From Campylobacterota bacterium (GTDB lineage Bacteria; Campylobacterota; Campylobacteria; Campylobacterales; Sulfurimonadaceae), in the NCBI GenBank assembly GCA_034717975.1, contig JAYEMF010000037.1, forward strand, positions 1 to 20,379: a stretch of 20,379 bases of DNA, given 5' to 3'. The notes beneath the pieces are model-generated. The model was not told the DNA's origin and did not search any database. It saw only the letters and a program-made list of their open reading frames with translations. Numbering within the stretch: the stretch's first letter is position 1; each line of letters begins with the position of its first letter. A program made the translations under genes and the position numbers. Of this stretch, positions 2,420 through 20,379 are shown one piece after another.

Positions 2420-2519
2420 TTCAAAAAAGGGAAGAGGACGTATGGCTTTAACAATAGGAATTCCCAGAGAGGTGCATAGCGGAGAGAGACGTGTCGCAGC
2501 AACCCCTGAAACATCAGAA
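2420..2519 (+). repeat. Direct repeat copy 2 (native pntA leader and 5' end)
   Basis: 94/100 identical to 1..100. Confidence 0.95.
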
Positions 2520-4016
2520 GAGCTGCAAAAGCTTGGGTTTAGTGTGCTGCTTGAAACCGATGCCGGGGAGAGTGCCAGTTTTCCTGATGATCTCTACCGG
2601 GAAGTGGGTGTTGAGATTATCAGTGATACAAAAACACTATGGAAAAGATCAGATATTATTCTGAAAGTTCGCGCGCCTGAAGTACATCCTCAGCTTGGCA
2701 TACATGAGGCAGAGCTTTTGGAGGAGGGAGCGTATCTGCTCAGCTTCATCTGGCCGGCACAAAACCCGGATCTGATGGAGAGACTGGCTGAGCGTAAAGC
2801 AACTGTACTGGCCATGGACAGCGTTCCGCGAATATCCAGGGCGCAAAAGCTTGATGCACTCAGTTCGATGGCCAACATTGCCGGATACCGTGCAGTAGTG
2901 GAAGCGGCCAGTCAGTTTGGACGGTTCTTGACCGGGCAGATCACTGCAGCCGGAAAAGTGGCTCCGGCCAAAGTCCTGGTGATTGGTGCCGGTGTAGCAG
3001 GTCTGGCCGCTGTAGGAACTGCGAACTCCATGGGAGCCATTGTACGTGCTTTTGATACCCGTCCCGAAGTCAAAGAGCAGGTAGAGAGTATGGGTGCAGA
3101 GTTCCTGGAACTCGACTTTGAGGAAGATGCCGAGGGTACGGGCGGTTATGCCAAAGTTATGAGCCCTGAGTTTATCAAGGCTGAGATGGAGCTCTTCGCC
3201 AATCAGGCGATGGAGGTCGATATTATCATTACTACGGCATTGATCCCGGGCAGACCGGCACCGGAACTGATTACCGAGGGAATGGTCGAGTCCATGCGCG
3301 AGGGAAGTGTCATTGTAGATCTTGCCGCTGAAAACGGGGGTAACTGTACCTTGACCGAACCGGGTGAAGTGGTAGTCAAACACGGTGTGACGCTGATCGG
3401 TTACACTGACCTTCCAAGCCGACTTCCCACCCAGTCGAGCCAGCTCTACGGAACCAATCTTCGGCATATGCTCAGTGACCTCTGCAAAGAGAGAGATGGA
3501 GAGATGACGATAGATATGGATGATGAGGTTATCCGCGGTACTACTGTTATCAGGGAGGGTGTTGTTACCTGGCCGCCTCCCGCGATAAAGGTTCCTGCCG
3601 CTCCCAAGCCGCAGGAGACCTTGAGTGAAACTGTAATGAAAACTGAAGAGAAGAAGAGCAGCAGATACGGAACTGCACTGCTTATGATCTTCGGTATTGC
3701 TGCAATGGCGGGACTCGGCTATGTCTCACCCCCGGACTTTCTGGCCCATTTTACGGTCTTTGTATTGGCCTGTTTTGTAGGTTATCAGGTGGTCTGGAAT
3801 GTAACACCTGCCTTGCATACACCGCTGATGAGCGTAACGAATGCCATAAGCGGCATCATCGTCCTGGGTGCACTGGTACAGTTCTCCGCAGAGTCCTCGA
3901 CTACAATTATGCTCTTGTCCCTGGTGGCGATTCTGGTTTCGGCTATCAATATCAGCGGTGGTTTCCTTGTAACCCATCGTATGTTGAAGATGTTTCAAAA
4001 AGATGAGGAGAAGTGA
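2442..4016 (+). CDS. pntA: NAD(P)+ transhydrogenase (Re/Si) subunit alpha, single-chain type
   Basis: [34 protein letters not shown]...FDTR, GGYAK loop, C-terminal TM part with [13 protein letters not shown]. Confidence 0.98.
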
Positions 4017-5410
4017 TGAGTGAAGGTTTACTGACTGTTGCATATATTATTGCCAGTGTTCTATTCATCTTGAGCCTCAGAGGATTGAGTCATCAGGAGA
4101 GTGCCCGCCGTGGTAATATCTATGGTATGTACGGTATGCTTATTGCCATTGCGGCCACTGTTTTGGGTGGTGAATCAGCCGGCGTGGAAGGAGTGCTTGC
4201 TGCGATGATCGTCGGTGGCATCATCGGGGCCGTCGTTGCAACAAGGGTCGAGATGACCGGGATGCCTCAACTGGTTGCCATGTTACACAGTTTTGTAGGG
4301 TTGGCGGCAGTGCTGGTAGGTTATGCCAATTACCTGGATCCGGAAGCTGCTTTGCACTTCAGCGGGGTGGGAAAAACGATTCACGATGTGGAGATTTACC
4401 TTGGAATTTTGATCGGTGCGGTGACGTTTACCGGCTCGCTGATCGCTTTTGGGAAACTGCAGGGTGTTATCGGCAGCAATCCTCTGCTTCTGCCGGCCCG
4501 TCATTGGCTCAACCTGGGACTTGGAGTGGCAACTGTCTGGCTAGGTGCCCAGTTTGTCAATGCGGATACGGTTTCTGAAGGAGCAACGCTTCTGGCGATC
4601 ATGACGCTGATCGCATTGGCTTTTGGTGTGCATATGGTAATGGCCATCGGCGGAGCAGATATGCCAGTAGTAGTTTCAATGCTTAACAGCTATTCGGGCT
4701 GGGCCGCTGCGGCGACAGGTTTTATGCTTTCGAATGACCTGCTGATCATTACGGGTGCATTGGTCGGAAGCAGCGGTGCTATTCTTTCGTACATTATGAG
4801 CCGTGCTATGAACCGCAGTTTTATCAGTGTCATTGCCGGAGGTTTTGGTACTGTTTCAGGAGAGGCTTCTGCCTCTGCAGTAGATGGTGAAACCATCTCC
4901 ATCGCCGCAGAGGAGACGGCAGAACTCTTAAGAGACGCGAAGCGGGTGATCATCGTTCCCGGTTACGGTATGGCGGTAGCCCAGGCCCAGCATCCCCTTG
5001 CGGAAATCACTAAAAAACTTCGAAACAGCGGGGTTGATGTACGTTTTGGTATTCACCCTGTTGCCGGACGGCTTCCGGGGCATATGAACGTGCTGCTCGC
5101 AGAGGCAAGAGTTCCTTATGATATTGTCCTTGAAATGGATGAGATCAATGCAGATTTTTCAGATACGGATGTGGTCCTGGTCATTGGTGCCAACGATACC
5201 GTAAACCCCTCTGCCATGGAAGACCCCTCAAGCCCAATTGCGGGAATGCCGGTTTTGGAAGTGTGGAAAGCAAAGAGTGTGGTAGTGATGAAACGGAGTA
5301 TGGCATCTGGTTATGCCGGTGTCGCAAACCCTCTCTTTTTCAAGGCCAATACCAGTATGCTGTTCGGCGATGCAAAAACGGGAGTTGATACCATACTTGG
5401 CAAGCTGTAG
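4016..5410 (+). CDS. pntB: NAD(P)+ transhydrogenase subunit beta
   Basis: [77 protein letters not shown] overlap with pntA and GAGGAG RBS (GTG 4013 is an alternative start). Confidence 0.98.
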
Positions 5411-5452: not shown

Positions 5453-5824
5453 TTATGATGCAGTCGATCCATGGGGCCAGAAACGGATCGCATTGCGTAC
5501 CTTTTCCACCCCCAGTTTTATACCGCTGTGACGCATGATCTTTGCTACTTTTTTCCACATTGGGCGTTCATAGCATGGGTTGGGGCATGCCCGGCATTTT
5601 GGTTTGTCGTCAAACGGGCATCCCTGAAGTCTGGCCATCCCGTATGCCACGGTTTCGGCACACTCCTCGCAAAGCAGCGCTTCAAGAGGTTCGGTACGTT
5701 CACCGGCGTACTTCAGCGTAATAGAATGGTTTTTTGTGGGAACATCCGTATGCTTGTCAGCACAATAGTGTGAAACAAACGTCGTTAATGTCGTCACTTC
5801 CTGAGTATATTTTTCAAATGTCAT
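5453..5824 (-). CDS. YgbA-family ('nitrous oxide-stimulated promoter') Cys-rich protein
   Basis: YC..KH, LCEEC, Y...RL..CPF..KPKC..CP.PCY......V.KIMRHSG signature. Confidence 0.85.
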   Translation of the reverse strand: MTFEKYTQEVTTLTTFVSHYCADKHTDVPTKNHSITLKYAGERTEPLEALLCEECAETVAYGMARLQGCPFDDKPKCRACPNPCYERPMWKKVAKIMRHSGIKLGVEKVRNAIRFWPHGSTAS

Positions 5825-8462: not shown

Positions 8463-9482
8463 ATGCTTACTGAAAAGATGTTTGAAATGACAGGTATTGT
8501 TCAAAGGTTTTTTTCACATTTTTCCAAAAGATATCTGGATGACAGAAAGGCTCTGCTTGAAGCAGTCCGCAAAGACGGAAAAGCTTTGAAATATACCAGT
8601 GCAATACTGCAGGCAGATAGAGATATTGTACTTGAAGCCGTTAAAAATGATGGATCTGCATTGAAGTATGCAAGCAAAGAACTGCGTGCCGATAAAGAGG
8701 TGGTCCTCGAAGCCTATAGAAACGATTCCCAGGCATTCGAATACGCCGATAAAACGCTACAGGAAGATAAAGCACTTATTATCAAAGCCGTTAAAAATCA
8801 TTGCAATGTTCTGAATTTCGTAAACAAGGAAGTCGAAGGTGACAGGAATGTTATTCTTGAAGCTGTCAGGAACAACTGCGTGGGTATGGAATATGTCAAT
8901 CCTGTTTTTCGTTCAGATAAAGAGATCATCCTTGCGGCTGTTAAAAATTCTGTCACTGAATTCAGGTATGCCAGCACAGAACTGCGTTCTGATAAAGAGG
9001 TGGTGCTAGAAGCAGTCAGCCATTTCGGTGCTGCATTAAAGAGTGCGGACAAAGTGCTGCAAGCAGACAAAGAGGTGGTACTTGCGGCTGTGAAAAATAA
9101 CGGCTACGCATTGGAATTCGCCGATAAAGCATTGCAAGCGGATAAAGAGGTTGTTATGGAAGCCCTCAGACACGCCGGTTTGGCATTGGAGTTTGCCAGT
9201 GAAGCGCTAAAAGCAGACAGAGAAGTGGTTGTGATGGCAGTCAAAACACATCATGGCCGTGCTCTGGAGTTTGCCGACAAAGCACTTCAGAAAGATAAGG
9301 TGATAGTATGCGACGCAATTAAAAACAGCGGTTTGAAACTCGAATTTGTACATTCTGAACTAACAGCAGACAAAGAGGTGGTGCGTGAAGCCGTTAAAAT
9401 CGATAGCCAGGCATTAAGATATGCAAGCAAAGCACTGCAAGAAGACAAGTCCCTGATCGCTCTGGCCGCCGGGAGAAATTAG
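8463..9482 (+). CDS. DUF4116 repeat (helical solenoid) protein
   Basis: Twelve full 25-aa units (one of 26) plus a half unit, consensus ADKEVVLEAVKNxGxALEYAskxLq; AGGAGG RBS. Confidence 0.88.
   Translation: MLTEKMFEMTGIVQRFFSHFSKRYLDDRKALLEAVRKDGKALKYTSAILQADRDIVLEAVKNDGSALKYASKELRADKEVVLEAYRNDSQAFEYADKTLQEDKALIIKAVKNHCNVLNFVNKEVEGDRNVILEAVRNNCVGMEYVNPVFRSDKEIILAAVKNSVTEFRYASTELRSDKEVVLEAVSHFGAALKSADKVLQADKEVVLAAVKNNGYALEFADKALQADKEVVMEALRHAGLALEFASEALKADREVVVMAVKTHHGRALEFADKALQKDKVIVCDAIKNSGLKLEFVHSELTADKEVVREAVKIDSQALRYASKALQEDKSLIALAAGRN
8538..9479 (+). repeat. Degenerate 75-bp coding tandem repeat (~12.5 units)
   Basis: Recurring GC(A/C/G)GA(T/C)AAAGAGGT(G/T)GT-like words at 75-nt multiples, matching the protein repeat. 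Confidence 0.85.
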
Positions 9483-9491
9483 GGTTTTGAG

Positions 9492-11024
9492 ATGGATATA
9501 AAAGAGCATGGTATTTTTACCCAAAATCTTCTGAGGTCTCTGGGAACAGATGAGAAGACGCAGCTTATCGAAACTCATATCTCTACGATAATTTTGAGTG
9601 GTGATCTGGCATACAAGCTGAAAAAACCGGTCGATTTCGGTTTTTTGGACTACTCGACACTGGAGAAACGGTACAAAAACTCTCTTGAAGAGGTGCGCAT
9701 CAATGAAGGTTTTGCACCAGAACTCTATCTGGGCGTGATACCGATAACCGGTTCGATCGAAGATCCCCGGATAGATGGTGAAGGCAGAGTGTTGGATCAT
9801 GCTGTGAAAATGCGCCGTTTCGAGCAAAATTGTCAGCTGGACAATATGGTCGATGAAGGCAGACTCGATATGGACTTAATGGACAAGGCTGCGCAGATGA
9901 TAGCCGCCTTCCATAAGAGAACAGAAGCAGCAGCTCCTCAAAGTGAATTTGGAGCGCCTGTGCGGGTGCTTGCGCCGATGGAAGAAAACTTTGAACTTCT
10001 TAAAGCAGTGGGATCTTTTCAGGCAAAGATCGATGTAGTCGAACGTTGGACTTACGATGGTTATAAGAGGTTTAAACCGCTGCTGAAATCTCGCAAAGAG
10101 AACGGCTTTATCCGCGAGTGCCACGGTGATATGCATCTTCACAATATGGCAATGTTTGAGGGTAAACTGATCATGTTCGACGCGATCGAGTTCAATCCCT
10201 ATCTCAATCATATAGATGTTATCAGTGATCTTGCATTTTTGCTGATGGATCTCGAGTATCGCAGCCTGCATCAACTAAGCCGCCGTGTTTTAAACCGCTA
10301 TCTTGAACTGACCGGTGATTACGAAGGGGTCAGAGTGCTTGACTTCTATAAAACCTACCGTGCTATGGTCAGGGCCAAAGTAGCCGCACTCAGAGCATCA
10401 CAGGATATGCTAGAGAGTGAGCGTCAGAGCGTAATGGATGAAGTCGAAAGATATATTGATCTGGCACTGAGCTATACCCGGGAAAAAGAGCCCTTTATGG
10501 CCATTACGCATGGCTGTTCCGGATCGGGTAAAAGCACCTTTGCCCAGATGCTGGTTGAAACACATGGTGCTCTGCGCATCCGTTCGGATGCGGAACGGAT
10601 GCGGATGTTTGAGAGAAGTGATGAGAGTGGTTTGGAGGAAGGCATATACACCCCTGATACGACCAAAGCAACGTATGAGCGTCTTCTTGAACTGGCTGTC
10701 TCTGTTTATGAAGCCGGATATTCTGTCATTGTGGATGCAACATTTTTGAAGCAGTGGCAGCGCCGGCTCTTTATTGAACACGCTTCGACGGCTGAGGCTC
10801 CCTTCTGTCTTTTCACGATGGCGTGTGATCATGAAGTGATGCGAAGCAGGGTAGAGCACCGTTCAGAAGAGGGTTCGGATATCTCAGAAGCGGACCTGGA
10901 AGTACTGCAGCTGCAGATTAAAAGTGCCGAACCGCTTTCGGAGAGTGAAAGAGAGGTCGAAGTGACAATCGACTGCTCCTCAACAGCATCGATGCGTCAA
11001 TCGGCTGCAAGAATAATGCAATGA
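9492..11024 (+). CDS. Bifunctional APH/kinase-like plus AAA_33 (gluconate kinase-like) P-loop protein, Rv2004c-like
   Basis: IETHIS, AYKLKKPV.FGFLDYST, RECHGDMHL.N, FDAIEFN, ID..SD.AFL.MDL; Walker A GCSGSGKST, RSDAER, VDATFL, SDISEA. Confidence 0.88.
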   Translation: MDIKEHGIFTQNLLRSLGTDEKTQLIETHISTIILSGDLAYKLKKPVDFGFLDYSTLEKRYKNSLEEVRINEGFAPELYLGVIPITGSIEDPRIDGEGRVLDHAVKMRRFEQNCQLDNMVDEGRLDMDLMDKAAQMIAAFHKRTEAAAPQSEFGAPVRVLAPMEENFELLKAVGSFQAKIDVVERWTYDGYKRFKPLLKSRKENGFIRECHGDMHLHNMAMFEGKLIMFDAIEFNPYLNHIDVISDLAFLLMDLEYRSLHQLSRRVLNRYLELTGDYEGVRVLDFYKTYRAMVRAKVAALRASQDMLESERQSVMDEVERYIDLALSYTREKEPFMAITHGCSGSGKSTFAQMLVETHGALRIRSDAERMRMFERSDESGLEEGIYTPDTTKATYERLLELAVSVYEAGYSVIVDATFLKQWQRRLFIEHASTAEAPFCLFTMACDHEVMRSRVEHRSEEGSDISEADLEVLQLQIKSAEPLSESEREVEVTIDCSSTASMRQSAARIMQ

Positions 11025-11058
11025 ACAATTTATCTCTTTTTGGGCAGACCGATAAACC

Positions 11059-11301
11059 TCACTGCCGTTCAGAGAAATAGTCCGCCATATGTTCCAGTGT
11101 ATCTACCTTGCCGTAGTCGGCCTCGGGGACTTCCACACCAAGATGTTCATTCAGGGCGGTAAGCACTTTTAAAAAATCGAAGGAGTCGATCTCCAGAGAG
11201 CGCTGAAGGTTCTCATTCGGCTCGATCTCCTCTTCTTCGATCTCCGGGGCGATCTCCAGAATCTGTTCGATGATGGTGTTCTTGATCTCTTCTTTGGTCA
11301 T
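11059..11301 (-). CDS. Acyl carrier protein (phosphopantetheine site Ser40)
   Basis: 80 aa, very acidic, LEIDSFDF motif, GVEVPEADY; ATGA overlap with E2. Confidence 0.9.
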   Translation of the reverse strand: MTKEEIKNTIIEQILEIAPEIEEEEIEPNENLQRSLEIDSFDFLKVLTALNEHLGVEVPEADYGKVDTLEHMADYFSERQ

Positions 11302-12458
11302 AGTAGTTCCTCCGGTTTTTGTAGAAAGTTGTTCAGTCTGTCCAGAAACAGTGCTCCGGTGCGGCCATCAGTGGCACGGTGATCACCGGCGATAGTCGCC
11401 TGCATAACTTTGCGTACACTCAGTGCATCGCCCTCGGCCCATGGGGTATCGCTAATACGGCCCAGTCCCACAATCGCAACTTGGGGAGGGTAGATGACAC
11501 CATAGACGCGTTCCACACCCAGGTCACCCAAATTGGTGATAGTCACGGTCTGCTGCGTCATCTCGCTGCCACGCAGTTTGCCGGAGCGGGTGCGGGTGAT
11601 CAGGTCGCCCAGTGAGTGCATGGTCTCATCGAGGTTCATCTGCTGTGCATTGAGCAGTGCCGGGGTGATCAGCCCTCCCTTGCGAAGTACGATGGCAATA
11701 CCGGGATTGACCGCTTCGCTTACACGATGCGTATCTTCCTGCCAAAAGCCATTGAGCTCCGGTACTTCCTCCAATGTCCGTACAACGGCACGGATCAACA
11801 AGGCGGCGGGCAGAATACGATCTTTGATACTGCGTTTGCCATTGAGTGCTGCAAGCCACTCCAGGGCCGGTGTCATATTGATCGAGGTGGAGAGATAATA
11901 GTGGGGGATCTCGGCATTGGAGCGGCTCATGGCTCTGGCAATAGCCTGGCGTATGCCGTCTGATTCAGGGATTTTGTGCAGAGTTGCCGCTGCAGCCTCT
12001 ACCTTGCTGAGCTGTATGGTTCCGCCTGTTCCAGATGCAAGTTCAGCCAGGTCAACACCCAGTTCACGGGCTTTTCTCCGTGCTGCCGGCGAGGCTTTGA
12101 CCCTCTCTCTGGAAGAGAGCTCATTGGCGGGCATTAGTGCAGGCTCTTTTGAAGGTTCCGGCTCTAAAGGTTTCGCTTCCGGTTCCGGGAAAGTGTCGGC
12201 AGCCGACTCTTCCAACTCTTCGTTTTCAGAACGGATCAGGGCCAGCGGCATACCCACGGCACACTCGGTCTCCTCTTCGACGAGAATCTTCTCCACAATA
12301 CCATCTTCGAATACCTCGATCTCGATGACCCCTTTGCTTGTCTCCACTTCGGCGATCACCTGACCCTTTGTTACATGGTCACCCTCTTTGACCATCCACT
12401 CCATCAAAACGGCCGACTCCATGTCAGCCCCAAGGCTCGGCATTTTAAATTCGCTCAT
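11298..12458 (-). CDS. pdhC: 2-oxoacid dehydrogenase E2 (dihydrolipoamide acyltransferase), single lipoyl domain
   Basis: Lipoyl domain EVETSK42[32 protein letters not shown] and catalytic DHRATDG. Confidence 0.9.
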
Positions 12459-13438
12459 GCTTCCTCCATCAGTTGACGTGCCGTGGCAACGATCTTTTCG
12501 GGCTGCGGAATGGCGGCGTCCTCGAGATGTTTGGCGTAGGGGAGAGGGACTTCGGCGGTGCAGACTCTTCGCATAGGAGCATCAAGTTCAAAAAAGGCCT
12601 GCTCGTTGATGCGTGCCATGATTTCGGCGGAGATACTGCCTGACTTCCATCCCTCATCGACGATCATTACCCGGTGTGTTTTCCTGAGGGACTCCATGAT
12701 AGCCGCATCATCAAGCGGTCGCAGGGATCGCAGGTCGATCACTTCGGCGTCAATACCCTCTTCTGAGAGTGTCTCAGCCGCTTCCAGCGCTTTAAAGAGG
12801 TTGATACCGTAGGCGAGAATCGTCAGATCTCTGCCCGACCGATGGAGCAGGGATTTTCCGATAGGCAGGGGTGTGGCTGAGGTGTCGAGCGTCCCTTTGG
12901 CGTTATAGAGCAGGGAGTTTTCGAAGATCAGTACCGGATCAGGATCGGCCAGTGCCAGACCAACCATATCGTAGGCATCCTGTACGGTTGCAGGGGTAAG
13001 CACTTTGAGACCCGGAATGTGGGCATACCACCCCTCAAGGCTGTGTGAGTGCTGGGCGGCCAGCTGTTTGCCGCCGCCGGTCGCCATGCGGATTACCAGA
13101 GGAACATTGAACTGGCCGCCAGACATATGGAGCAAGGTGGCGGCGTTGTTCATGATCTGATCGAGGGCCAGCAGGCTGAAATTTACCGTCATGATCTCCA
13201 CGATGGGGCGCATACCGTTCATGGCGGCACCGATACCCGCACCGGTAAACGCTGATTCAGAGAGTGGCGTATCGATGATCCGTTCAGCTCCAAACTCTTC
13301 TTGAAGTCCCATACTCACGGCGAAACAGCCGCCGTAACGGCCGACATCTTCTCCCATCAGAAAGACCCGTTCATCTTTTTGCATCGCTTCACGGATACTT
13401 TGGCGAACCGCTTCGCGGTAGGTACTGTTCTCACCCAT
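12455..13438 (-). CDS. pdhB: Pyruvate dehydrogenase E1 beta subunit (327 aa)
   Basis: [44 protein letters not shown] 13438 with GAGGAGG RBS preferred over the ORF-track start 13507. Confidence 0.92.
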
Positions 13439-14408
13439 TGTGCACCTCCTCAGAGTAGACGAATTTTTCAAGATCAGTGACGGGCTCCAGTGTGCCGTTT
13501 TCGGCAAATTTCACCGCCTCGTTAATGATCTCTGCGATCTCATCTTCGATCTCATCGCGATTGATCTTTGACCAGAGGTCCATCGCTTCAAGCCTGTTCT
13601 GAAATAGTACCAGAGGACCTTTCTTCTTCCACTCTTCGACTTCCGCTTTTTCACGGTAGAGTTCAGCATCAAACAGAGAGTGGGCGCGGAAACGGTAGGT
13701 AAGGCATTCGAGAAAGCGAGGGCCCTTTCCGGCGCGGATCTCTGCCACTGCTTCTTCAGCTGCCTCGGCAACATCGACGACACTCATCCCATCTACCTGT
13801 TTGGAACCAAGCTTATAAGCTGCTGCTTTGCGGGCGATATTTGTCTCCGACTCAGAGAACTCCAGGGCAGTTCCCATGCCGTAGCGGTTGTTTTCACAAA
13901 TAAAGAGCACCGGCAGTTGCCACAGAGCGGCGAGGTTTAAAGATTCGTGAAACTCTCCTTCGGCCACAGCGCCATCGCCAAAGAGGCAGACCGTGACCCG
14001 GTTGCGTTTCATCATCTTGTCTGCCATTGCCATCCCGACGGCCAGTGGCAGAGCGCCGCCGACAATGGCGCTGCCGCCGTAAAAGCGTGTTGCGGCATCA
14101 AAAAGATGCATGGAACCGCCCCGTCCGCGGGAGCATCCCTCCACCTTTCCGTACATTTCGGCCATGATGCTTTTGGCAGAGATCCCGCGTGCAAGAGCCT
14201 GTCCATGTTCTCGGTAGGTGGCAAGTACGGCATCTTCAGGGCTCAGTGCATGCATAACGCCCACCGCTATCGCTTCCTCTCCGATGTAGAGATGCAAAAA
14301 GCCCCGAATCTTCTCGCTGCTGTAGAGCTCTACGCACTTCTCTTCAAAGCGCCGGATCAATAGCATCTGCCGGTAAAATTCCCGGGCCAGTGTCAAATCT
14401 AAATCCAT
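13431..14408 (-). CDS. pdhA: Pyruvate dehydrogenase E1 alpha subunit
   Basis: [29 protein letters not shown] motif GDGA...[20 protein letters not shown]. Confidence 0.92.
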
Positions 14409-14419
14409 AGTTGCTCCTT

Positions 14420-16171
14420 TTAATCTTCCAAGGTGGAAATGTCACCCTCGGGCAGTCCCATCTCCCGTGCTTTAAGCAGCCGGCGCATGATCTTGCCGCT
14501 TCGGGTCTTTGGCAGGTTTTCCTGGAACTCGATCTCTTTGGGTGCGACTGCAGCTCCCAGCTTCTTGCGTCCGAAGCCGATCAGTTCGCGTCTGAGCTCC
14601 TCTGTGGCCTCAAAACCGGTTTTGAGCGAGACAAAGGCTTTGACCAGCTGGCCGATGATCGGGTCTGGCTTGCCGATAACACCGGCTTCTGTCACCGCCG
14701 GGTGTTCCATCAGGGCACTTTCTACTTCGAAAGGGCCTACCATATGGCCGGAGGTCTTGATGATATCATCGGAGCGTCCGACAAACCAGAAATAGCCCGC
14801 TTCATCCCTGTAGGCAAGGTCGCCGGAGATATACCACTCTCCGACAAAACTTTTTTTGTATTTCTCTTCATTATGAAGGTAGGCCCGGAACATGGAGGGC
14901 CAGCCAGCTTTCAGTGCCAGATCTCCCTCCTTGCCCGCTTCAGTGACCTCTGTAACGGTGCCATCATCATTTTGATGTACGATTGCAGCTTCAATGCCGG
15001 GAAGGGGCCTGCCCATAGAACCGGGACGTATGGTCTGAGAGATCAGGTTGGTGATCATGATCCCGCCTGTCTCTGTCTGCCACCAGTTATCGTGGATCGG
15101 CAATTTGAGTTTCTTCGCTCCCCAGACTACCGCTTCGGGATTGAGCGGTTCGCCGACGCTCTGGATCAGGCGCAGTCGGGAGAGGTCATACTCTTTCGTC
15201 GGTTCGGAGTCGATGCGCATCAGGCGTCGGATCGCCGTGGGAGCGGTATACCAGATACTGACCTGCTCATCCTGCAAAACACCGTACCACCGCTCGGCAT
15301 TGAACTCCGCTTCATCCACAACGTTAGTGACACCATGAATCCAGGGGGTGATGATGCCGTATGAGGTGCCGGTGACCCAACCCGGGTCGGCAGTACACCA
15401 GTAGATGTCATCGCTATGGAGGTCGAGTACGTATTGGCCGGTCATCCAGTGGGTGTAGACGGCTTTATGTACATGCACCACTCCCTTTGGCATTCCGGTG
15501 GTGCCGCTGGTGAAGTGGAGTATCGACATATCTTCAGGATCGGTGGGCGGAATCTCAAAGGTGTCAGAGGCCTTTTCCATCAGGCGGGGGAGGGAGAGAA
15601 CCTGTTCGCTCTCATCTTCTTCGGCATCGATCAGCAGGACATAACGAAGTTCCGGCAGCTGCTCGAGCAGGGGGCGTATCTTTTTTTTGAAGAGTCTCTG
15701 TGTCGTCAAGAGGGCTCTTGCATCGCCCCGCTGCATGCGCTGCAGTATGGGCTCGGGGCCGAACTGGGAGAAGAGCGGGCAGATGACGCTGCGGTTTTTC
15801 AGGATGCCCATGGCGGCGATGTAGAGTTCGGGCAGACGTGTAGAGAGGGTGAAGATACGATCGCCCTTTGAGAGCCCAAGTGATTGGATCACATTGGCGA
15901 ACCTGGCGCTCTCCTTTTTCATCTCGGAAAAGGTGTATCTTCTTTTTTTACCACTCTCTCCAAGCCATAACAGAGCGGTTTTGTCTGCGAGGGGACCATT
16001 GGCATGGCGGTCGATCGCTTCGTGGGCGATATTGAGCCCGCCTGAGGGCAGTCCCTCGAACACTTGGGCCACCGCTTCCCAGCTAAAGGCTTCACGTTCC
16101 TGATCATAGTCCGTCAGGTTCGGCTGAACTGGAAAATCCTCTGCTCTTTTTTCGATCCACTTCTCTTCCAT
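14420..16171 (-). CDS. acsA: Acetate--CoA ligase (AMP-forming), Bacillus AcsA-like, 583 aa
   Basis: [54 protein letters not shown] 16171 with AAAGGA RBS preferred over 16240. Confidence 0.92.
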
Positions 16172-16199
16172 CTTGCATCCTTTAAAAAGTCTGTTTTCA

Positions 16200-16237
16200 G
16201 GTTTTAAGGTAAAACCAATAATAACATATAATATAAT
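16200..16237. promoter_or_regulatory. Divergent promoter region: palindrome GGTTTTA-AGG-TAAAACC (16200-16216) and overlapping TATAAT hexamers (16227-16237, plus strand)
   Basis: Read directly in the 120-bp AT-rich spacer between acsA and the lipoylation operon. Confidence 0.5.
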
Positions 16238-16291
16238 CAAAAGAGATGTAATTGGTGTCTTTTTTGAATGCTTGTCCGATAACAGGAGGTC

Positions 16292-17074
16292 ATGATCAAA
16301 GCAAAAACGTGGCGGCTTATCGAAAGCGGGATTGGGCCTGCTGACTGGAATATGGCGCTGGACGAGGCGCTGCTGAACGGCTTCAGAGAGGGTGACCAGC
16401 CGATTCTTCGGCTCTATGGATGGGAACCGGCCCTGAGTCTGGGACGGTTTTCAAGTGTTCACAAGAGTGTGGATATGGAGAGGCTGGAGCAACAGCAACT
16501 TTCCTGCGTACGCCGTATGACCGGAGGAGGAGTACTGGTGCATGGCGGGGATCTCTCCTATGCGCTGGTCCTGCCCCGTAAATCCCTAAAGGACAGAGGG
16601 GTGCGAGAGAGTTACCGTTACCTGTGCCGGTTTCTCATCCGCCTCTATGAAAAGCTGGGCCAAAATGCCCATTTTGCCCGTGATCTGCAGCTCGAGGGCG
16701 GAAGGTCCGATATCTGTCTGGCTGATAATGAGGCCTATGATATTGTAATCGAAGGCAGAAAAATGGGTGGTAATGCCCAGCGTCATACCCGCCACATTCT
16801 GTTTCAGCACGGTAGTATCCCTATGAACGTGGATGAGTCACGCTTCAAACCACTTTTTTTGGGGGATTCCGGATTGGAGCGTGCGGCAACGCTTCAGCGG
16901 CTGGGAAACGAGGTGGCCTATGAAGAGCTTGCAGGCTTGCTGAGAGAGTCGTTCAGTGAAACGTTTGATGTGAATGTCGCGGAGGAGAATCTGCGTCCGT
17001 CGGAAGAGGAGCGTGCCATGGAGCTCTTGACGCAAAAATACAGCCGGCAAAGGTGGAACATCAATGGAGAATAG
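16292..17074 (+). CDS. lipM: Single-domain LplA-family protein, LipM-like octanoyltransferase
   Basis: [26 protein letters not shown]142...GRK157MGGNAQ, QHGSI; Cys-Lys spacing of 15 as in B. subtilis LipM; no LplA C-terminal domain; AGGAGG RBS. Confidence 0.7.
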
Positions 17075-17921
17075 AATTATGCGTAAACCGGAGTGGCTGC
17101 GTAAAAAGATCACACCGAGCGACCACAAAGCGATGGAGACCCTGTTGGCCGAAGGGCGACTCCATACGGTCTGTGAGGAGGCGATGTGTCCCAATATCAG
17201 TGAATGTTTTCGCCAGAAGCAGGCAACGTTTCTGATACTGGGCAATATCTGTACCCGCGCCTGCAGTTTCTGTGCCCTCAGCAGGGGAAGGCTTATGGCG
17301 CCGGACTCCGATGAGCCTGGAAATGTGGCTCAAACAGTCAGGCGGCTTGGACTGCGGCACGTGGTCATTACCAGCTCCACGCGCGATGATCTGAGTGACG
17401 GCGGTGCCGGGCACTTTTGTGAGACGGTACACGCCATTAAAGCCATCGATGACGCCATTACCGTAGAGCTGTTGATCCCCGATATGCAAGAAAACGAGGA
17501 GACACTCGCATTGGTAGCCAAGAGCGGAGCCGAGATTGTCGGGCATAATCTGGAGACGGTACCGCGCCTCTATCATGTGCGGAAGGGAGCGGAGTATGAA
17601 CGCTCACTGCGGGTACTGAAGATGCTCTCCTCTGTCAATCCCTCGATCGCGACCAAAAGCGGTATCATGCTCGGTTTTGGTGAACGTGACGACGAAGTGA
17701 TGAATTTGATGCAGGACCTTCTGGATGTGGGATGCGGGTATCTCAGTATCGGTCAGTACCTGGCTCCTTCGCACAATCATGCCGCGGTTGTGGAGTATGT
17801 AAAACCGGAGCGGTTTGAGTTGTTCAGAAAGCGCGGGATGGAGATGGGGTTTAAGTACATTAAAAGTTCACCCTATACGCGCAGCAGTTATATGGCGCAC
17901 GAATATCTGGAGGCAAGATGA
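17064..17921 (+). CDS. lipA: Lipoyl synthase (radical SAM)
   Basis: KPEWL, CEEAMCPNISEC (CX4CX5C), CTRACSFC (CX3CX2C), RDDL, HNLETV, GQYL.P, RSSY; alternative ATG at 17079. Confidence 0.97.
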   Translation: MENRIMRKPEWLRKKITPSDHKAMETLLAEGRLHTVCEEAMCPNISECFRQKQATFLILGNICTRACSFCALSRGRLMAPDSDEPGNVAQTVRRLGLRHVVITSSTRDDLSDGGAGHFCETVHAIKAIDDAITVELLIPDMQENEETLALVAKSGAEIVGHNLETVPRLYHVRKGAEYERSLRVLKMLSSVNPSIATKSGIMLGFGERDDEVMNLMQDLLDVGCGYLSIGQYLAPSHNHAAVVEYVKPERFELFRKRGMEMGFKYIKSSPYTRSSYMAHEYLEAR

Positions 17922-19264
17922 AAAAGTACGAAGCAGTGGTGATCGGGGCAGGTCCCGGAGGTTATGAAGCCGCATTGAAGTTGGCTGAAGCAGGTGTGAA
18001 GACCTTGCTGATCGATCGAAACAAAGAGCGTCTCGGCGGAACGTGCCTGAACGAGGGATGCATCTCTGCCAAAGCCTATCTTCAGAGTGCGGAGTATGTC
18101 TCAAAAGCCTCCCATTTCAGTGAGTGCGGTGTGGCGCTGGAAGTCAAGGGGTTGGACATGGCGCGTCTTGCAGAGAAAACAGTGTCGCTGAAGAATGAGA
18201 TCCGCTCGGGTGTCGTATGGCTGCTCGAACAGGCAGGGGTTGAGACGCTCTACGGCTCTGCATGTTTTATCGATGCCAACAGTGTTGAGGTCTCAGGCGA
18301 GAGGATCGGTTTTGAGAAGTGCATTATCGCAACGGGATCAGCAGTCCGGGAGATGCCGCAGCTGCCGCTCGAGGGCAAGCGCATTATCTCCAGTAAAGAG
18401 GTGTTTGAACTGGAGTCTCTGCCTGCCTCGATTACCATTGTCGGAGGAGGACCCATCGCGTGCGAATTTGCCACCTTTTTCACTGCTTTCGGCGTGGAGG
18501 TGACGATGATAGTACGTGGTTTACAGCTTCTCTCTGCAGAAGATAAGGATGTTGCCAAGGCGTTGTTGCGGGCCTTTAAAAAACGAAATATCAAAGTAAT
18601 CACCTCTGCCGCTGTTCAAAAGGCTGAAGTGAATGGGGAGGGCGTCGAGTTACTCATCGAGGCAGGGAGCCAGGAGCGTATCCGGAGTGAACTGCTGCTC
18701 TGTGCAAGCGGCCGTATCCCCTATACCGATGGTCTCCAGAGTGAAAATGCCGGAGTGGAGAAAAACGAAAAGGGCTTTATTGCGGTCGATGCATCGTTTC
18801 AGACGACCCGAAATCATATCTATGCCGTCGGGGATTGCATCGATACGCCGGCCTTTGCGCACACGGCGTATGCCGAAGCGAGGATCGCCGTGCAAAATAT
18901 TGTCAGCGGCGGAGCAGCCACCAACACCCATATTACCCCTTCCACCATCTACAGCGATCCTGCTGTCGCAAGCTGCGGCCTGAGAGAGAAGGAAGCCAAA
19001 GCGCAGGGGCGTGCCGTCGAAGTCAAAAAAGCCTTTTTCAAGGCCAATGCAAAGGCGAAGATCGAGGGGGATGACTCCGGATTTGCGAAGATGATCGTCT
19101 GCGCGGAGAGCGGTGTGGTCCTGGGCGCTTCAATCATCGGGGTCGAAGCAACGGAGATCATTCACGAAATGGTACTCTCTGTTGAGAAAAAGCTGACGGC
19201 TGAGGATCTTAAAGGGATGATCCACGCACACCCGAGCGTATCGGAGATTGTCAGTTGTCTATAG
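17918..19264 (+). CDS. lpdA: Dihydrolipoamide dehydrogenase (E3) with an NADP-type dinucleotide fold
   Basis: GAGPGG, GGTCLNEGCI redox disulfide, ATGS, YAVGD, ANAKA, HAHPSVSE; ATGA overlap with lipA. Confidence 0.9.
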   Translation: MKKYEAVVIGAGPGGYEAALKLAEAGVKTLLIDRNKERLGGTCLNEGCISAKAYLQSAEYVSKASHFSECGVALEVKGLDMARLAEKTVSLKNEIRSGVVWLLEQAGVETLYGSACFIDANSVEVSGERIGFEKCIIATGSAVREMPQLPLEGKRIISSKEVFELESLPASITIVGGGPIACEFATFFTAFGVEVTMIVRGLQLLSAEDKDVAKALLRAFKKRNIKVITSAAVQKAEVNGEGVELLIEAGSQERIRSELLLCASGRIPYTDGLQSENAGVEKNEKGFIAVDASFQTTRNHIYAVGDCIDTPAFAHTAYAEARIAVQNIVSGGAATNTHITPSTIYSDPAVASCGLREKEAKAQGRAVEVKKAFFKANAKAKIEGDDSGFAKMIVCAESGVVLGASIIGVEATEIIHEMVLSVEKKLTAEDLKGMIHAHPSVSEIVSCL

Positions 19265-20368
19265 TAGTGTTTCGAGTGCTTTCGACTCCAGGCCGAGTGC
19301 CTTGGCAACGGCAGGGTTGGTAACCGACCCGTTAAAGATATTGACACCAAGTGCGAGGGAAGAGTCATTTTTAATGGCATCGGGACACCCCTCATTGGCC
19401 AGTTTTCGTATATAGGGGAGTGTGGCATTGGTCAGAGCGACCGTAGCGGTTTTCGGGTACGCTCCGGGCATATTGGCCACGCAGTAGTGAAGCACCTCCT
19501 CCTCTATAAAAATCGGGTCGGTGTGGGTCGTCGGCCGCGAGGTTTCGGAGATGCCGCCCTGATCGATCGTAATATCGACCAGAACACTTCCTTTTTTCAT
19601 CTTCCGCAGCATATCGCGTGTTATCAGTTTTGGCGTCGTGGCACCTCCATGGATCAACACCGTACTGATGACAACATCCGAATCCGGCAGCAGTTCACGA
19701 AGCATTTCCGGAGAGTAGAGGGCTGTTTTAGCGGAAGGAAGTACTTTTTGCAGCTGTTCCAGTTTTGGTGCTGAACGGTTCAGTACGGTCACGTCCGCAC
19801 CCATACCGATGGCTATTTTAGCCGCGTTAAACCCGGCATTGCCGGCACCGATGATCAGGACATTCGCCGGTGCCACCCCGACAGCACCGCCTATGAGGAT
19901 ACCTTCACCGCCCTGGTAACGGCTGAGATGACAAGCCGCAACCGACGGCGCCATCTTACCGGCTATCTCGCTCATCGGTTTTAGCAGTGGAAGCAGGTTG
20001 TCAGATGCGACGGTCTCGTAGGCGATGGCGCAGACTCTTTTTTCGATGAGAACAGAGACCAGCTCCGGCAGCGGTGCGAGGTGCAGGTAGCAAAAGAGGG
20101 TATGGCGTTCACTTAAAAGGTCATACTCGGATGGCTGCGGCTCTTTCACCTTGACGATCAGTGTCGCCCGGGCATAGAGTGTTTCGGCACTTGTTAGTAC
20201 TTCTGCACCGGCATTGCGGTATTGCGCATCACTGAAACCGCTCCCCTCTCCGGCACCGCGCTGCACTAAAACGGTGTGGCCGTCCTCAATGAGCTGTGCC
20301 ACATTGAAGGGTGTGGCACCAACGCGAAACTCATCTGTTTTCACCTCTTTGGGAATACCGAGTGTCAT
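19259..20368 (-). CDS. ald: Alanine dehydrogenase, with N-R-S replacing the NAD-determining Asp
   Basis: GIPKEVK..EFRV..TP, KVKEP, YLHLA, IAYETV, LPLL.PMSEIAG, DITIDQGG..ETSRPTTH, HYCVANMPGA; AGGAG RBS at the window end. Confidence 0.95.
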   Translation of the reverse strand: MTLGIPKEVKTDEFRVGATPFNVAQLIEDGHTVLVQRGAGEGSGFSDAQYRNAGAEVLTSAETLYARATLIVKVKEPQPSEYDLLSERHTLFCYLHLAPLPELVSVLIEKRVCAIAYETVASDNLLPLLKPMSEIAGKMAPSVAACHLSRYQGGEGILIGGAVGVAPANVLIIGAGNAGFNAAKIAIGMGADVTVLNRSAPKLEQLQKVLPSAKTALYSPEMLRELLPDSDVVISTVLIHGGATTPKLITRDMLRKMKKGSVLVDITIDQGGISETSRPTTHTDPIFIEEEVLHYCVANMPGAYPKTATVALTNATLPYIRKLANEGCPDAIKNDSSLALGVNIFNGSVTNPAVAKALGLESKALETLL

Positions 20369-20379
20369 CTTTTTCTCCT

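Follow-up and report, generated by a model that had tools for sequence, protein, structure and literature searches.

The window, a stretch of DNA of 20379 bp, is the whole of contig C37 from a 2.52-Mb Campylobacterota genome (G000; 149 contigs, rated 99.9% complete). Nine contiguous genes at its right-hand end encode a pyruvate dehydrogenase (PDH) complex, consisting of E1alpha, E1beta, the dihydrolipoyl acyltransferase E2 and the dihydrolipoyl dehydrogenase E3, together with an AcsA-type acetate-CoA ligase, an acyl carrier protein (ACP), an LplA/LipM-like transferase, the lipoyl synthase LipA and an alanine dehydrogenase (Ald). The best explanation, to which we assign a probability of roughly 55%, is that the PDH genes constitute a horizontally spread, self-sufficient cassette whose E3 accepts NADP+, and that Ald is an accessory enzyme working towards alanine. 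New here are the form of the cassette that bears E3 and lipoylation genes and two natural clades, one of E3 and one of Ald, with NADP-type signatures. Among open papers and preprints none was found that describes either clade, and the open literature yielded no paper joining the cassette parts (ACP, acetyl-CoA synthetase, PDH) and host attachment protein. The nine-gene content proposed by the first-pass annotation was confirmed from the open reading frame (ORF) listing and profile searches (NCBIfam with curated cut-offs, Pfam), by which all genes were called.

On the minus strand, from 16240 down to 11059, lie the ligase, E1alpha, E1beta, E2 and ACP genes; on the plus strand, at 16292-19264, lie those for the LplA/LipM-like protein, LipA and E3, to which ald stands tail-to-tail. 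Packing is tight, with 4-bp overlaps at ACP/E2 (ACP start with E2 stop), E2/E1beta and LipA/E3. Relatives of the ligase, 58-83% identical, were compared at 80 loci out of 597 confirmed candidates, and their carriers included Campylobacterota, Chloroflexota, cyanobacteria, Desulfobacterota, Verrucomicrobiota, Planctomycetota, Acidobacteriota, Alpha- and Betaproteobacteria and others. The order ligase-E1alpha-E1beta-E2-ACP, with ACP directly after E2, was kept in all four loci that were annotated (L004, Sulfurimonadaceae; L006, labelled Pseudomonadota; L009, Arcobacteraceae; L012, cyanobacterial), and the window shows the same five genes in the same order, with ACP last and coupled to E2. The longer arrangement E3<LipA<LplA< >ligase>E1alpha>E1beta>E2>ACP was found in L004, L006 and L009, as in the window; in L012 no LplA-like protein, LipA or E3 was found within 10 kb (13 of its 19 ORFs of at least 150 aa scanned). 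In L012, part of a complete Egbenema sp. chromosome, the ligase at 10001-11751 is split between two ORFs (195 and 439 aa) that overlap, owing to a frameshift or a sequencing error. In L004 and L006 the cassette has PCMT and radical SAM genes at its flanks.

Across 121 sampled Sulfurimonadaceae genomes (23 genera) the cassette was patchily distributed. The ligase was present in 20 genomes from eight genera and E3 of the window's clade in 19, of which 17 were among the ligase-positive genomes; the three ligase-positive genomes without it are 86-89% complete. LipA of the cluster type (at least 63% identity) occurred in 20 genomes, and G070 has a fragment of it where a contig ends. At a limit of E<=1e-40, LipA was missing from 91 of the 121 genomes; at E<=1e-60, 99 of them lacked any E3 relative. 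In G114 the match to the clade-type E3 falls into two parts (C7:507724-509053; residues 1-287 and 281-443), and the gene is probably frameshifted. A further, distant type of LipA (42-62% identity) was observed in G001, G026, G049, G054, G067, G075, G081, G044, G033 and G032, some of which also carry a distant E3 (34-43%); part of the family thus has a different lipoate-dependent system.

Within G000 the cluster E2 is the sole lipoyl-domain protein, the other Biotin_lipoyl matches being OadA (oxaloacetate decarboxylase alpha) and two HlyD-type proteins, and no GcvH was found in this genome. The lipoylation genes and E3 therefore serve that E2. The G+C content is 52-56% at 11-20 kb (about 54% in the cluster), compared with 39-52% (mean about 46%) at 1-11 kb. 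The step at about 11.04 kb is bridged by contigs from all four public runs, which belong to one study, and a chimeric join is therefore not the cause. Patchy distribution and G+C composition together indicate lateral spread of the cluster, of which no match was found in the plasmid collection. The closest relatives of the window genes carry the labels Sulfurimonas, Sulfurimonadaceae and Sulfuricurvum; the host is a sulfur-oxidising Sulfurimonas-like bacterium, and its PDH gene set is imported.

The window E3 reads VEVTMIVRGLQLLS. In HMMER alignments the conserved Glu of the solved NAD-dependent enzymes 1ebd, 6aon and 2eq7 falls on V199, which is followed by R200, so that the NAD-binding Glu expected of a PDH E3 is replaced, as far as a sequence signature can tell. 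The protein otherwise shows the lipoamide dehydrogenase features, with the disulfide motif CLNEGC and the C-terminal HAHPSVSE. In a search of 1.84 billion representatives the clade was represented by a single full-length sequence (689 bits) plus fragments, after which the next match dropped to 369 bits and 42% identity; by sequence the clade is sharply separate and specific to Campylobacterota. An acidic residue (17 Glu, one Asp) was present in all 18 nearest outgroup representatives at the site occupied in the clade by V or L and then Arg, and each of the 11 clade members inspected at residue level had an Arg preceded by V, A, G, C or L. Among the 120 nearest E3 proteins (61-86% identity) this Arg was at least 90% conserved, while the preceding site had no majority residue. 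With the outgroup acidic, the Glu lost and the Arg near-invariant, the change is derived and maintained, indicating purifying selection on the changed site. The VR fingerprint noticed in the first-pass annotation was thus not only borne out by the alignments to solved enzymes but was also found to be clade-wide. At residue 181, where the window has GGGPIA, at least 90% of the clade, including G007 and G070, have Gly; the window E3 thus has a GxGxxA fingerprint of its own, a motif that accompanies NADP in glutathione reductase. Named Sulfurimonas isolates are among the carriers of this E3 clade and of the N-R Ald described below.

Work on Escherichia coli Lpd allows the effect of this change to be estimated. 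According to PMC8406311, the wild-type enzyme has no NADP+ activity, and the exchange E205A or E205G alone gives an NADP+/NAD+ efficiency ratio of 0.6-1.9 and lets PDH and 2-oxoglutarate dehydrogenase (OGDH) supply NADPH in vivo. In the same study the NAD+ efficiency falls, on loss of the Glu, from 830 to 12.8 or 5.4 per s per mM, i.e. about 65-fold or more (PMC8406311); a Glu-less E3 is therefore unlikely to be a good NAD-only enzyme. The fivefold variant E205V M206R F207K D208H P212R is listed with NADP preference in a table of PMC5817062. The clade very likely accepts NADP+, as predicted from its residues, and may either prefer it over NAD+ or use both.

It is doubtful that the motifs lack physiological meaning, with E3 and Ald being NAD-linked or promiscuous and the cluster encoding an ordinary aerobic-type PDH for more oxygen or organic acids. 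This would agree with the pdhABCD genes of one Sulfurimonas genome, taken as a sign of higher oxygen tolerance in PMC11800652, and with the incomplete match to the engineered Lpd and the dual specificity of its single variants. It is opposed by the loss of the acidic residue in all 11 clade members read, compared with its retention in the outgroup, together with the gain of the Arg, and by the inactivity of wild-type Lpd with NADP+ and the collapse of NAD+ efficiency once the Glu is removed. The lxa low-oxygen locus of Burkholderia was also considered as a holder of such PDH genes; none is given in the text and Table 4 of PMC3721108, as far as these were accessible.

The second nucleotide-linked enzyme shows a comparable change. 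The window Ald reads ADVTVLNRSAPKL, matches the solved alanine dehydrogenase 8hyh with 373 bits and passes the alanine dehydrogenase model. In HMMER alignments with 8hyh, 2eez and 2voe their NAD-ribose-binding Asp falls on N200, followed by R201, so that N-R stands in place of the expected Asp-[ILV]. The internal NAD-type controls hold, since the SerA-like protein reads VVGYDP and PntA reads RAFDTR. Ald was present in 57 of the 121 family genomes; ten of these proteins, including that of G000, were at least 61% identical to the window's and the rest 50-56%. All nine window-type proteins that were aligned had N-R (the one from G103, with an in-frame stop, was left out), and both common-type proteins that were aligned had D-I. 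In the 120 nearest Alds, including that of Sulfurimonas gotlandica GD1, N200 and R201 were each at least 90% conserved, so that this fingerprint of the first-pass annotation, too, proved to be clade-wide. Two Ald matches each were obtained in G030, G055, G082 and G036; the occurrence of both types in these four genomes is what paralogues with different roles would show. A table of PMC5817062 lists Bacillus subtilis AlaDH D196A L197R as preferring NADPH and Shewanella AlaDH D198A as likewise turned to NADPH. From its motif the N-R Ald is predicted to be NADPH-linked, and hence it would most likely work towards alanine.

The first-pass annotation had treated ald as part of the module. Tail-to-tail adjacency of ald and E3 could be observed only in G000, G007 and G070, whose Alds are 85% identical, indicating one lineage-level event, and the Ald motif, invariant in both family clades, was absent from all 80 ligase loci, a scan that could miss Alds of other phyla. 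The E3/Ald junction (19259-19264) was not bridged by any of the 32 contig pieces listed (130 more exist); the adjacency is supported by the window itself and by G007 and G070. When genomes with ligase, E3 or LipA were counted as cluster-bearing (23 genomes), the N-R Ald occurred in six of them compared with four of the 98 others, an enrichment among kin that are not independent; it was missing from the remaining 17 cluster-bearing genomes, and no E1alpha was found in four of the ten genomes with N-R Ald. The co-occurrence expected for the E3 and Ald motifs thus appeared as an enrichment and did not extend to most cluster-bearing genomes. Neighbours of the N-R Ald were an alpha/beta hydrolase gene (G007, G070, G082, G030), Memo and AMMECR1 (G082, G030) and, in G086 and G120, genes for GDPD, PCMT and a radical SAM protein, overall an AmmeMemoRadiSam-like set. 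As PCMT and radical SAM genes occur near both the N-R Ald and the cassette, both are part of a common pool of accessory, stress-island-like genes. We regard ald as an independent accessory gene that is mostly not part of the module; membership in a conserved module is not supported, and the data come close to the lack of synteny that the first-pass annotation had named as evidence against its proposal.

The same observations bear on the catabolic scheme of the first-pass annotation, by which alanine would be converted via pyruvate to an acetyl thioester, yielding two NADPH in an NADPH-centred host in which PntAB would keep the pools in balance. PntAB was said to lie about 6 kb away and was found 5.6 kb from the ACP gene. 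PntB occurred in five of the 121 family genomes (the window's, G008, G034, G100 and G114), four of which have cluster parts, which weakly suggests a connection with NADP(H) balance. The rarity of PntB, the NADP-type motifs on both enzymes, the adjacency in three genomes and the enrichment of the N-R Ald would all suit the scheme. The convergent position of ald, its absence from the ligase loci and from 17 of the 23 cluster-bearing genomes, and its neighbours elsewhere, which are not PDH genes, speak against it. Furthermore, nuoD, nuoE, nuoF and a nuoG-like gene were found in a row in G000 (C67; L091 2-3496, minus strand), so that the premise of an NADPH-centred, NuoEF-less host fails. Campylobacter and Helicobacter are said to lack the NADH-oxidising NuoEF module, which G000 has. 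NADPH-linked amino-acid dehydrogenases usually are anabolic and act reductively, and oxidation of alanine by an NADP-linked Ald would oppose this role. The scheme is therefore possible but less likely, and we consider it improbable.

The cassette that we favour might operate as follows. Campylobacterota genomes are mostly without lipoate metabolism, and the cassette would bring its own in the divergent operon of LplA-like protein, LipA and E3. The LplA/LipM-like protein may carry out octanoyl or lipoyl attachment and LipA the insertion of sulfur, enabling complete lipoate-dependent pyruvate oxidation in a host that otherwise would use ferredoxin-dependent 2-oxoacid oxidoreductases. E1 would oxidise pyruvate, and E2 would use its lipoyl arm to hand the acetyl group to CoA and/or the private ACP, the latter acceptor being suggested by analogy with glycolyl-ACP systems. 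E3 would pass electrons to NADP+ or to both cofactors; NADP+ is probably no poorer a substrate than NAD+, and the products of pyruvate oxidation would then be NADPH and an acetyl thioester. The NADPH-linked Ald would run towards alanine (pyruvate + NH4+ + NADPH) and not away from it. Where both enzymes are present, as in the window, they might close an NADP(H) loop in which two pyruvate give alanine, an acetyl thioester and CO2, while PntAB would connect the pools. In this scheme we infer the cofactor preference, the acetyl acceptor and the physiological direction. An insulated loop between a natural NADP-specific PDH and an NADPH-specific Ald, which would dismutate pyruvate to alanine and an acetyl thioester carried by the private ACP or by CoA, gain ATP via reversed AcsA and permit survival without electron acceptor, is a speculative and rather unlikely extension.

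A tentative possibility, which overlaps with the favoured explanation and does not exclude it, is that of a carrier-protein system, in which acetyl from E2, or acetate loaded by the ligase, would be placed on the private ACP and feed an acylation or biosynthetic step, with E3 re-oxidising the lipoyl arm. In Campylobacterota and cyanobacteria alike the ACP gene always comes last, with its translation coupled to that of E2, and E2 itself is diverged, carrying ETSKG in its lipoyl domain and scoring below all E2 equivalog cut-offs; moreover, NADPH and acetyl units would both be needed in reductive lipid synthesis. It is at odds with this possibility that no conserved ketosynthase, acyltransferase or thioesterase gene lies adjacent, a 4HBT thioesterase being found near the cassette only in L009, and that the ligase bears every mark of a CoA-forming AcsA.

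The first-pass annotation had also proposed the reductive use of the genes, from acetate via an acetyl thioester and pyruvate to alanine, with PDH running backwards on NADPH. The gene list alone would allow this. The pyruvate/acetyl-CoA + CO2 couple lies at about -500 mV and NADPH at -320 mV, which forbids reverse PDH without a low-potential ferredoxin. G000 has four clear 2-oxoacid:ferredoxin oxidoreductases of the POR_N type, including one that is 1206 aa long, as expected of a reverse tricarboxylic acid (rTCA) cycle autotroph; they perform the same step and make reversal of PDH needless, so that this proposal was rejected. The search for such oxidoreductases and for NuoEF, suggested in the first-pass annotation, thus recovered both kinds in G000. 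Taken together, its nine genes, both motifs and their controls stand, while the conserved link to ald and the host premise do not, and both of its directional inferences are disfavoured.

Several points weigh against an NADP+-linked, self-sufficient cassette with an accessory Ald. Calls of cofactor use from motifs can fail. Only two of the five engineered Lpd changes are present in E3, and a second Arg six residues on occurs only in protein P0012; dual specificity is therefore as likely as preference. The Asn of the N-R Ald could still bind the NAD ribose, and the D-I type of the lower-identity Alds was read in two of about 47. With NuoEF in the host, nothing forces the use of NADP. Adjacency of ald and the cluster is confined to three related genomes and is convergent, from which co-regulation could at most be surmised. 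Loci from outside the Campylobacterota, except L006, gave no match to three E3 active-site patterns; these degenerate patterns miss some true E3 genes (e.g. no match in L008), and the counts are lower bounds. Cassettes of other phyla without their own E3 would need a host E3, presumably of NAD type, and NADP use is accordingly not intrinsic to the cassette. Finally, since E2, ACP and the LplA-like protein score below NCBIfam cut-offs, the substrate of E2 and its acceptor are uncertain.

Table 1. Features of the window, with profile matches and cut-offs.
Feature	Position	Strand	Basis
PntA-PntB proton-translocating transhydrogenase (context, outside the cluster)	2442..5410	+	NF006942 837 bits, NF006974 743.6 bits
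ACP, dedicated, 80 aa	11059..11301	-	PF00550 40.4 bits; Ser in LEIDSFDFL
E2 dihydrolipoyl acyltransferase	11298..12458	-	PF00364 lipoyl, PF02817 E3/E1-binding, PF00198 catalytic
E1beta	12455..13438 (ORF to 13507)	-	NF006667 406.8 bits, cut-off 321
E1alpha, pyruvate dehydrogenase type	13431..14408	-	TIGR03182 435.5 bits, cut-off 393.85
AcsA-type acetate-CoA ligase	14420..16171 (ORF to TTG 16240)	-	NF003313 936 bits, cut-off 729
Divergent intergenic region, A+T-rich	16172..16291		separates ligase operon from lipoylation/E3 operon
LplA/LipM-like lipoate or octanoyl transferase, 260 aa	16292..17074	+	PF21948 121.5 bits
Lipoyl synthase LipA	17064..17921	+	NF004019 371.9 (cut-off 203); TIGR00510 333 (cut-off 310.25)
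E3 dihydrolipoyl dehydrogenase	17918..19264	+	TIGR01350 422, cut-off 408.8
Alanine dehydrogenase, N-R clade	19259..20368	-	TIGR00518 438, cut-off 391.85; 6-bp overlap with E3

NCBIfam cut-offs were passed by E1alpha, E1beta, the ligase, LipA, E3 and Ald, while E2, ACP and the LplA-like protein were recognised at Pfam level only. E1alpha and E1beta both belong to PDH models of the heterotetrameric E1 type; the true start of E1beta is probably near 13438, as the profile match begins at residue 29 and the homologues of L004 and L006 have 327 aa. The ligase matches the solved 572-aa acetyl-CoA synthetase 9g79 with 595 bits and has intact NWWQTETGG and SGKIMRR motifs, WWQTETGG being presumably the acetate-pocket region and the Lys of SGKIxRR what we take to be the catalytic/acetylated lysine; by profile and motifs it is assigned as a true AcsA type. 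Its start is probably the ATG at 16171 (MEEKW), since relatives match only from residues 20-29 on. In E2 the lipoyl motif ETSKG stands where DKA is usual and the catalytic motif is DHRATDG; its score remained under every NCBIfam E2 equivalog cut-off (229.9 vs 445). ACP did not pass as a housekeeping AcpP, its best NCBIfam ACP model scoring 38.4 against a cut-off of 66. The LplA/LipM-like protein had no equivalog-level match (best NCBIfam score 101 vs 480) and only the catalytic-domain Pfam family PF21948; from its sequence it could be either a lipoate ligase (LplA) or an octanoyltransferase (LipM). One weak promoter-like site was detected in the intergenic region at 16194-16222, no better than in shuffles, and promoter and terminator scans gave no more matches than in shuffled sequence.

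Outside the cluster, a 13.7-kb contig of run X3 ends on window positions 19326-20379, so that the genome extends about 12.7 kb past ald; in G007 and G070 this side of ald carries an alpha/beta hydrolase gene and a DUF434/DUF5616 gene. At 8463-11024 the window encodes a 339-aa protein of seven DUF4116 repeats and then a protein of 510 aa, which ends in an AAA_33/zeta-toxin-like kinase domain and has an N-terminal part of 330 residues that could be assigned to no family. Between PntB and NhaD, at 5453-5824, lies a gene for a YgbA-type 'nitrous oxide-stimulated promoter' family protein (149.5 vs cut-off 148). The PntAB region has a raised G+C content of 52%.

PDH complexes are textbook NAD enzymes, and to our knowledge NADP-reducing PDH complexes come only from protein engineering and laboratory evolution. 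A natural E3 clade with the same changes, on a mobile, self-lipoylating PDH-ACP island of rTCA-cycle autotrophs, would provide a template for NADPH-generating pyruvate oxidation and would help to address the role of the widespread ligase-E1-E2-ACP cassette. The paired D-I and N-R Alds represent a clean natural experiment in cofactor switching. If true, the dismutation loop would let a chemolithoautotroph outlast periods without electron acceptor.

In comparison with the classical PDH complex with heterotetrameric E1 (alphaproteobacteria, mitochondria, Gram-positives), the window cluster has E1alpha and E1beta that pass PDH models, an E2 with lipoyl, subunit-binding and catalytic domains (including DHRxxDG) and an E3 that passes the lipoamide dehydrogenase model. 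It differs by the addition of a private ACP, an AcsA-type ligase and its own lipoylation genes, by an E2 below equivalog cut-offs with ETSKG, and by an E3 in which the NAD-binding Glu is lost with Arg beside it. The QncN/QncL/QncM glycolyl-ACP system of tetrahydroisoquinoline antibiotics likewise combines genes for a thiamine enzyme, for an E2-like protein that bears a lipoyl group and for an ACP; the window differs in having a pyruvate-type E1 and no genes for non-ribosomal peptides in the neighbourhood. The E3 clade resembles engineered and evolved E. coli Lpd in that the same Glu is replaced (by V, A and G among others) and Arg is next to it, as in the engineered enzyme; the clade is natural, however, and carries the first two of the five engineered changes without the other three. 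In the N-R Ald the positions changed are those of B. subtilis AlaDH D196A L197R and Shewanella AlaDH D198A, with Arg at the second; unlike these variants the clade is natural, has Asn instead of Ala and, in some genomes, occurs alongside a D-I paralogue. With the ligase-E1-E2-ACP cassettes of other phyla the window shares the same five genes, their order and coupling, and a ligase 58-83% identical across phyla (cyanobacterial L012 annotated); in contrast to these E3-less cassettes, the window and other Campylobacterota add an LplA-like protein, LipA and a clade-specific E3.

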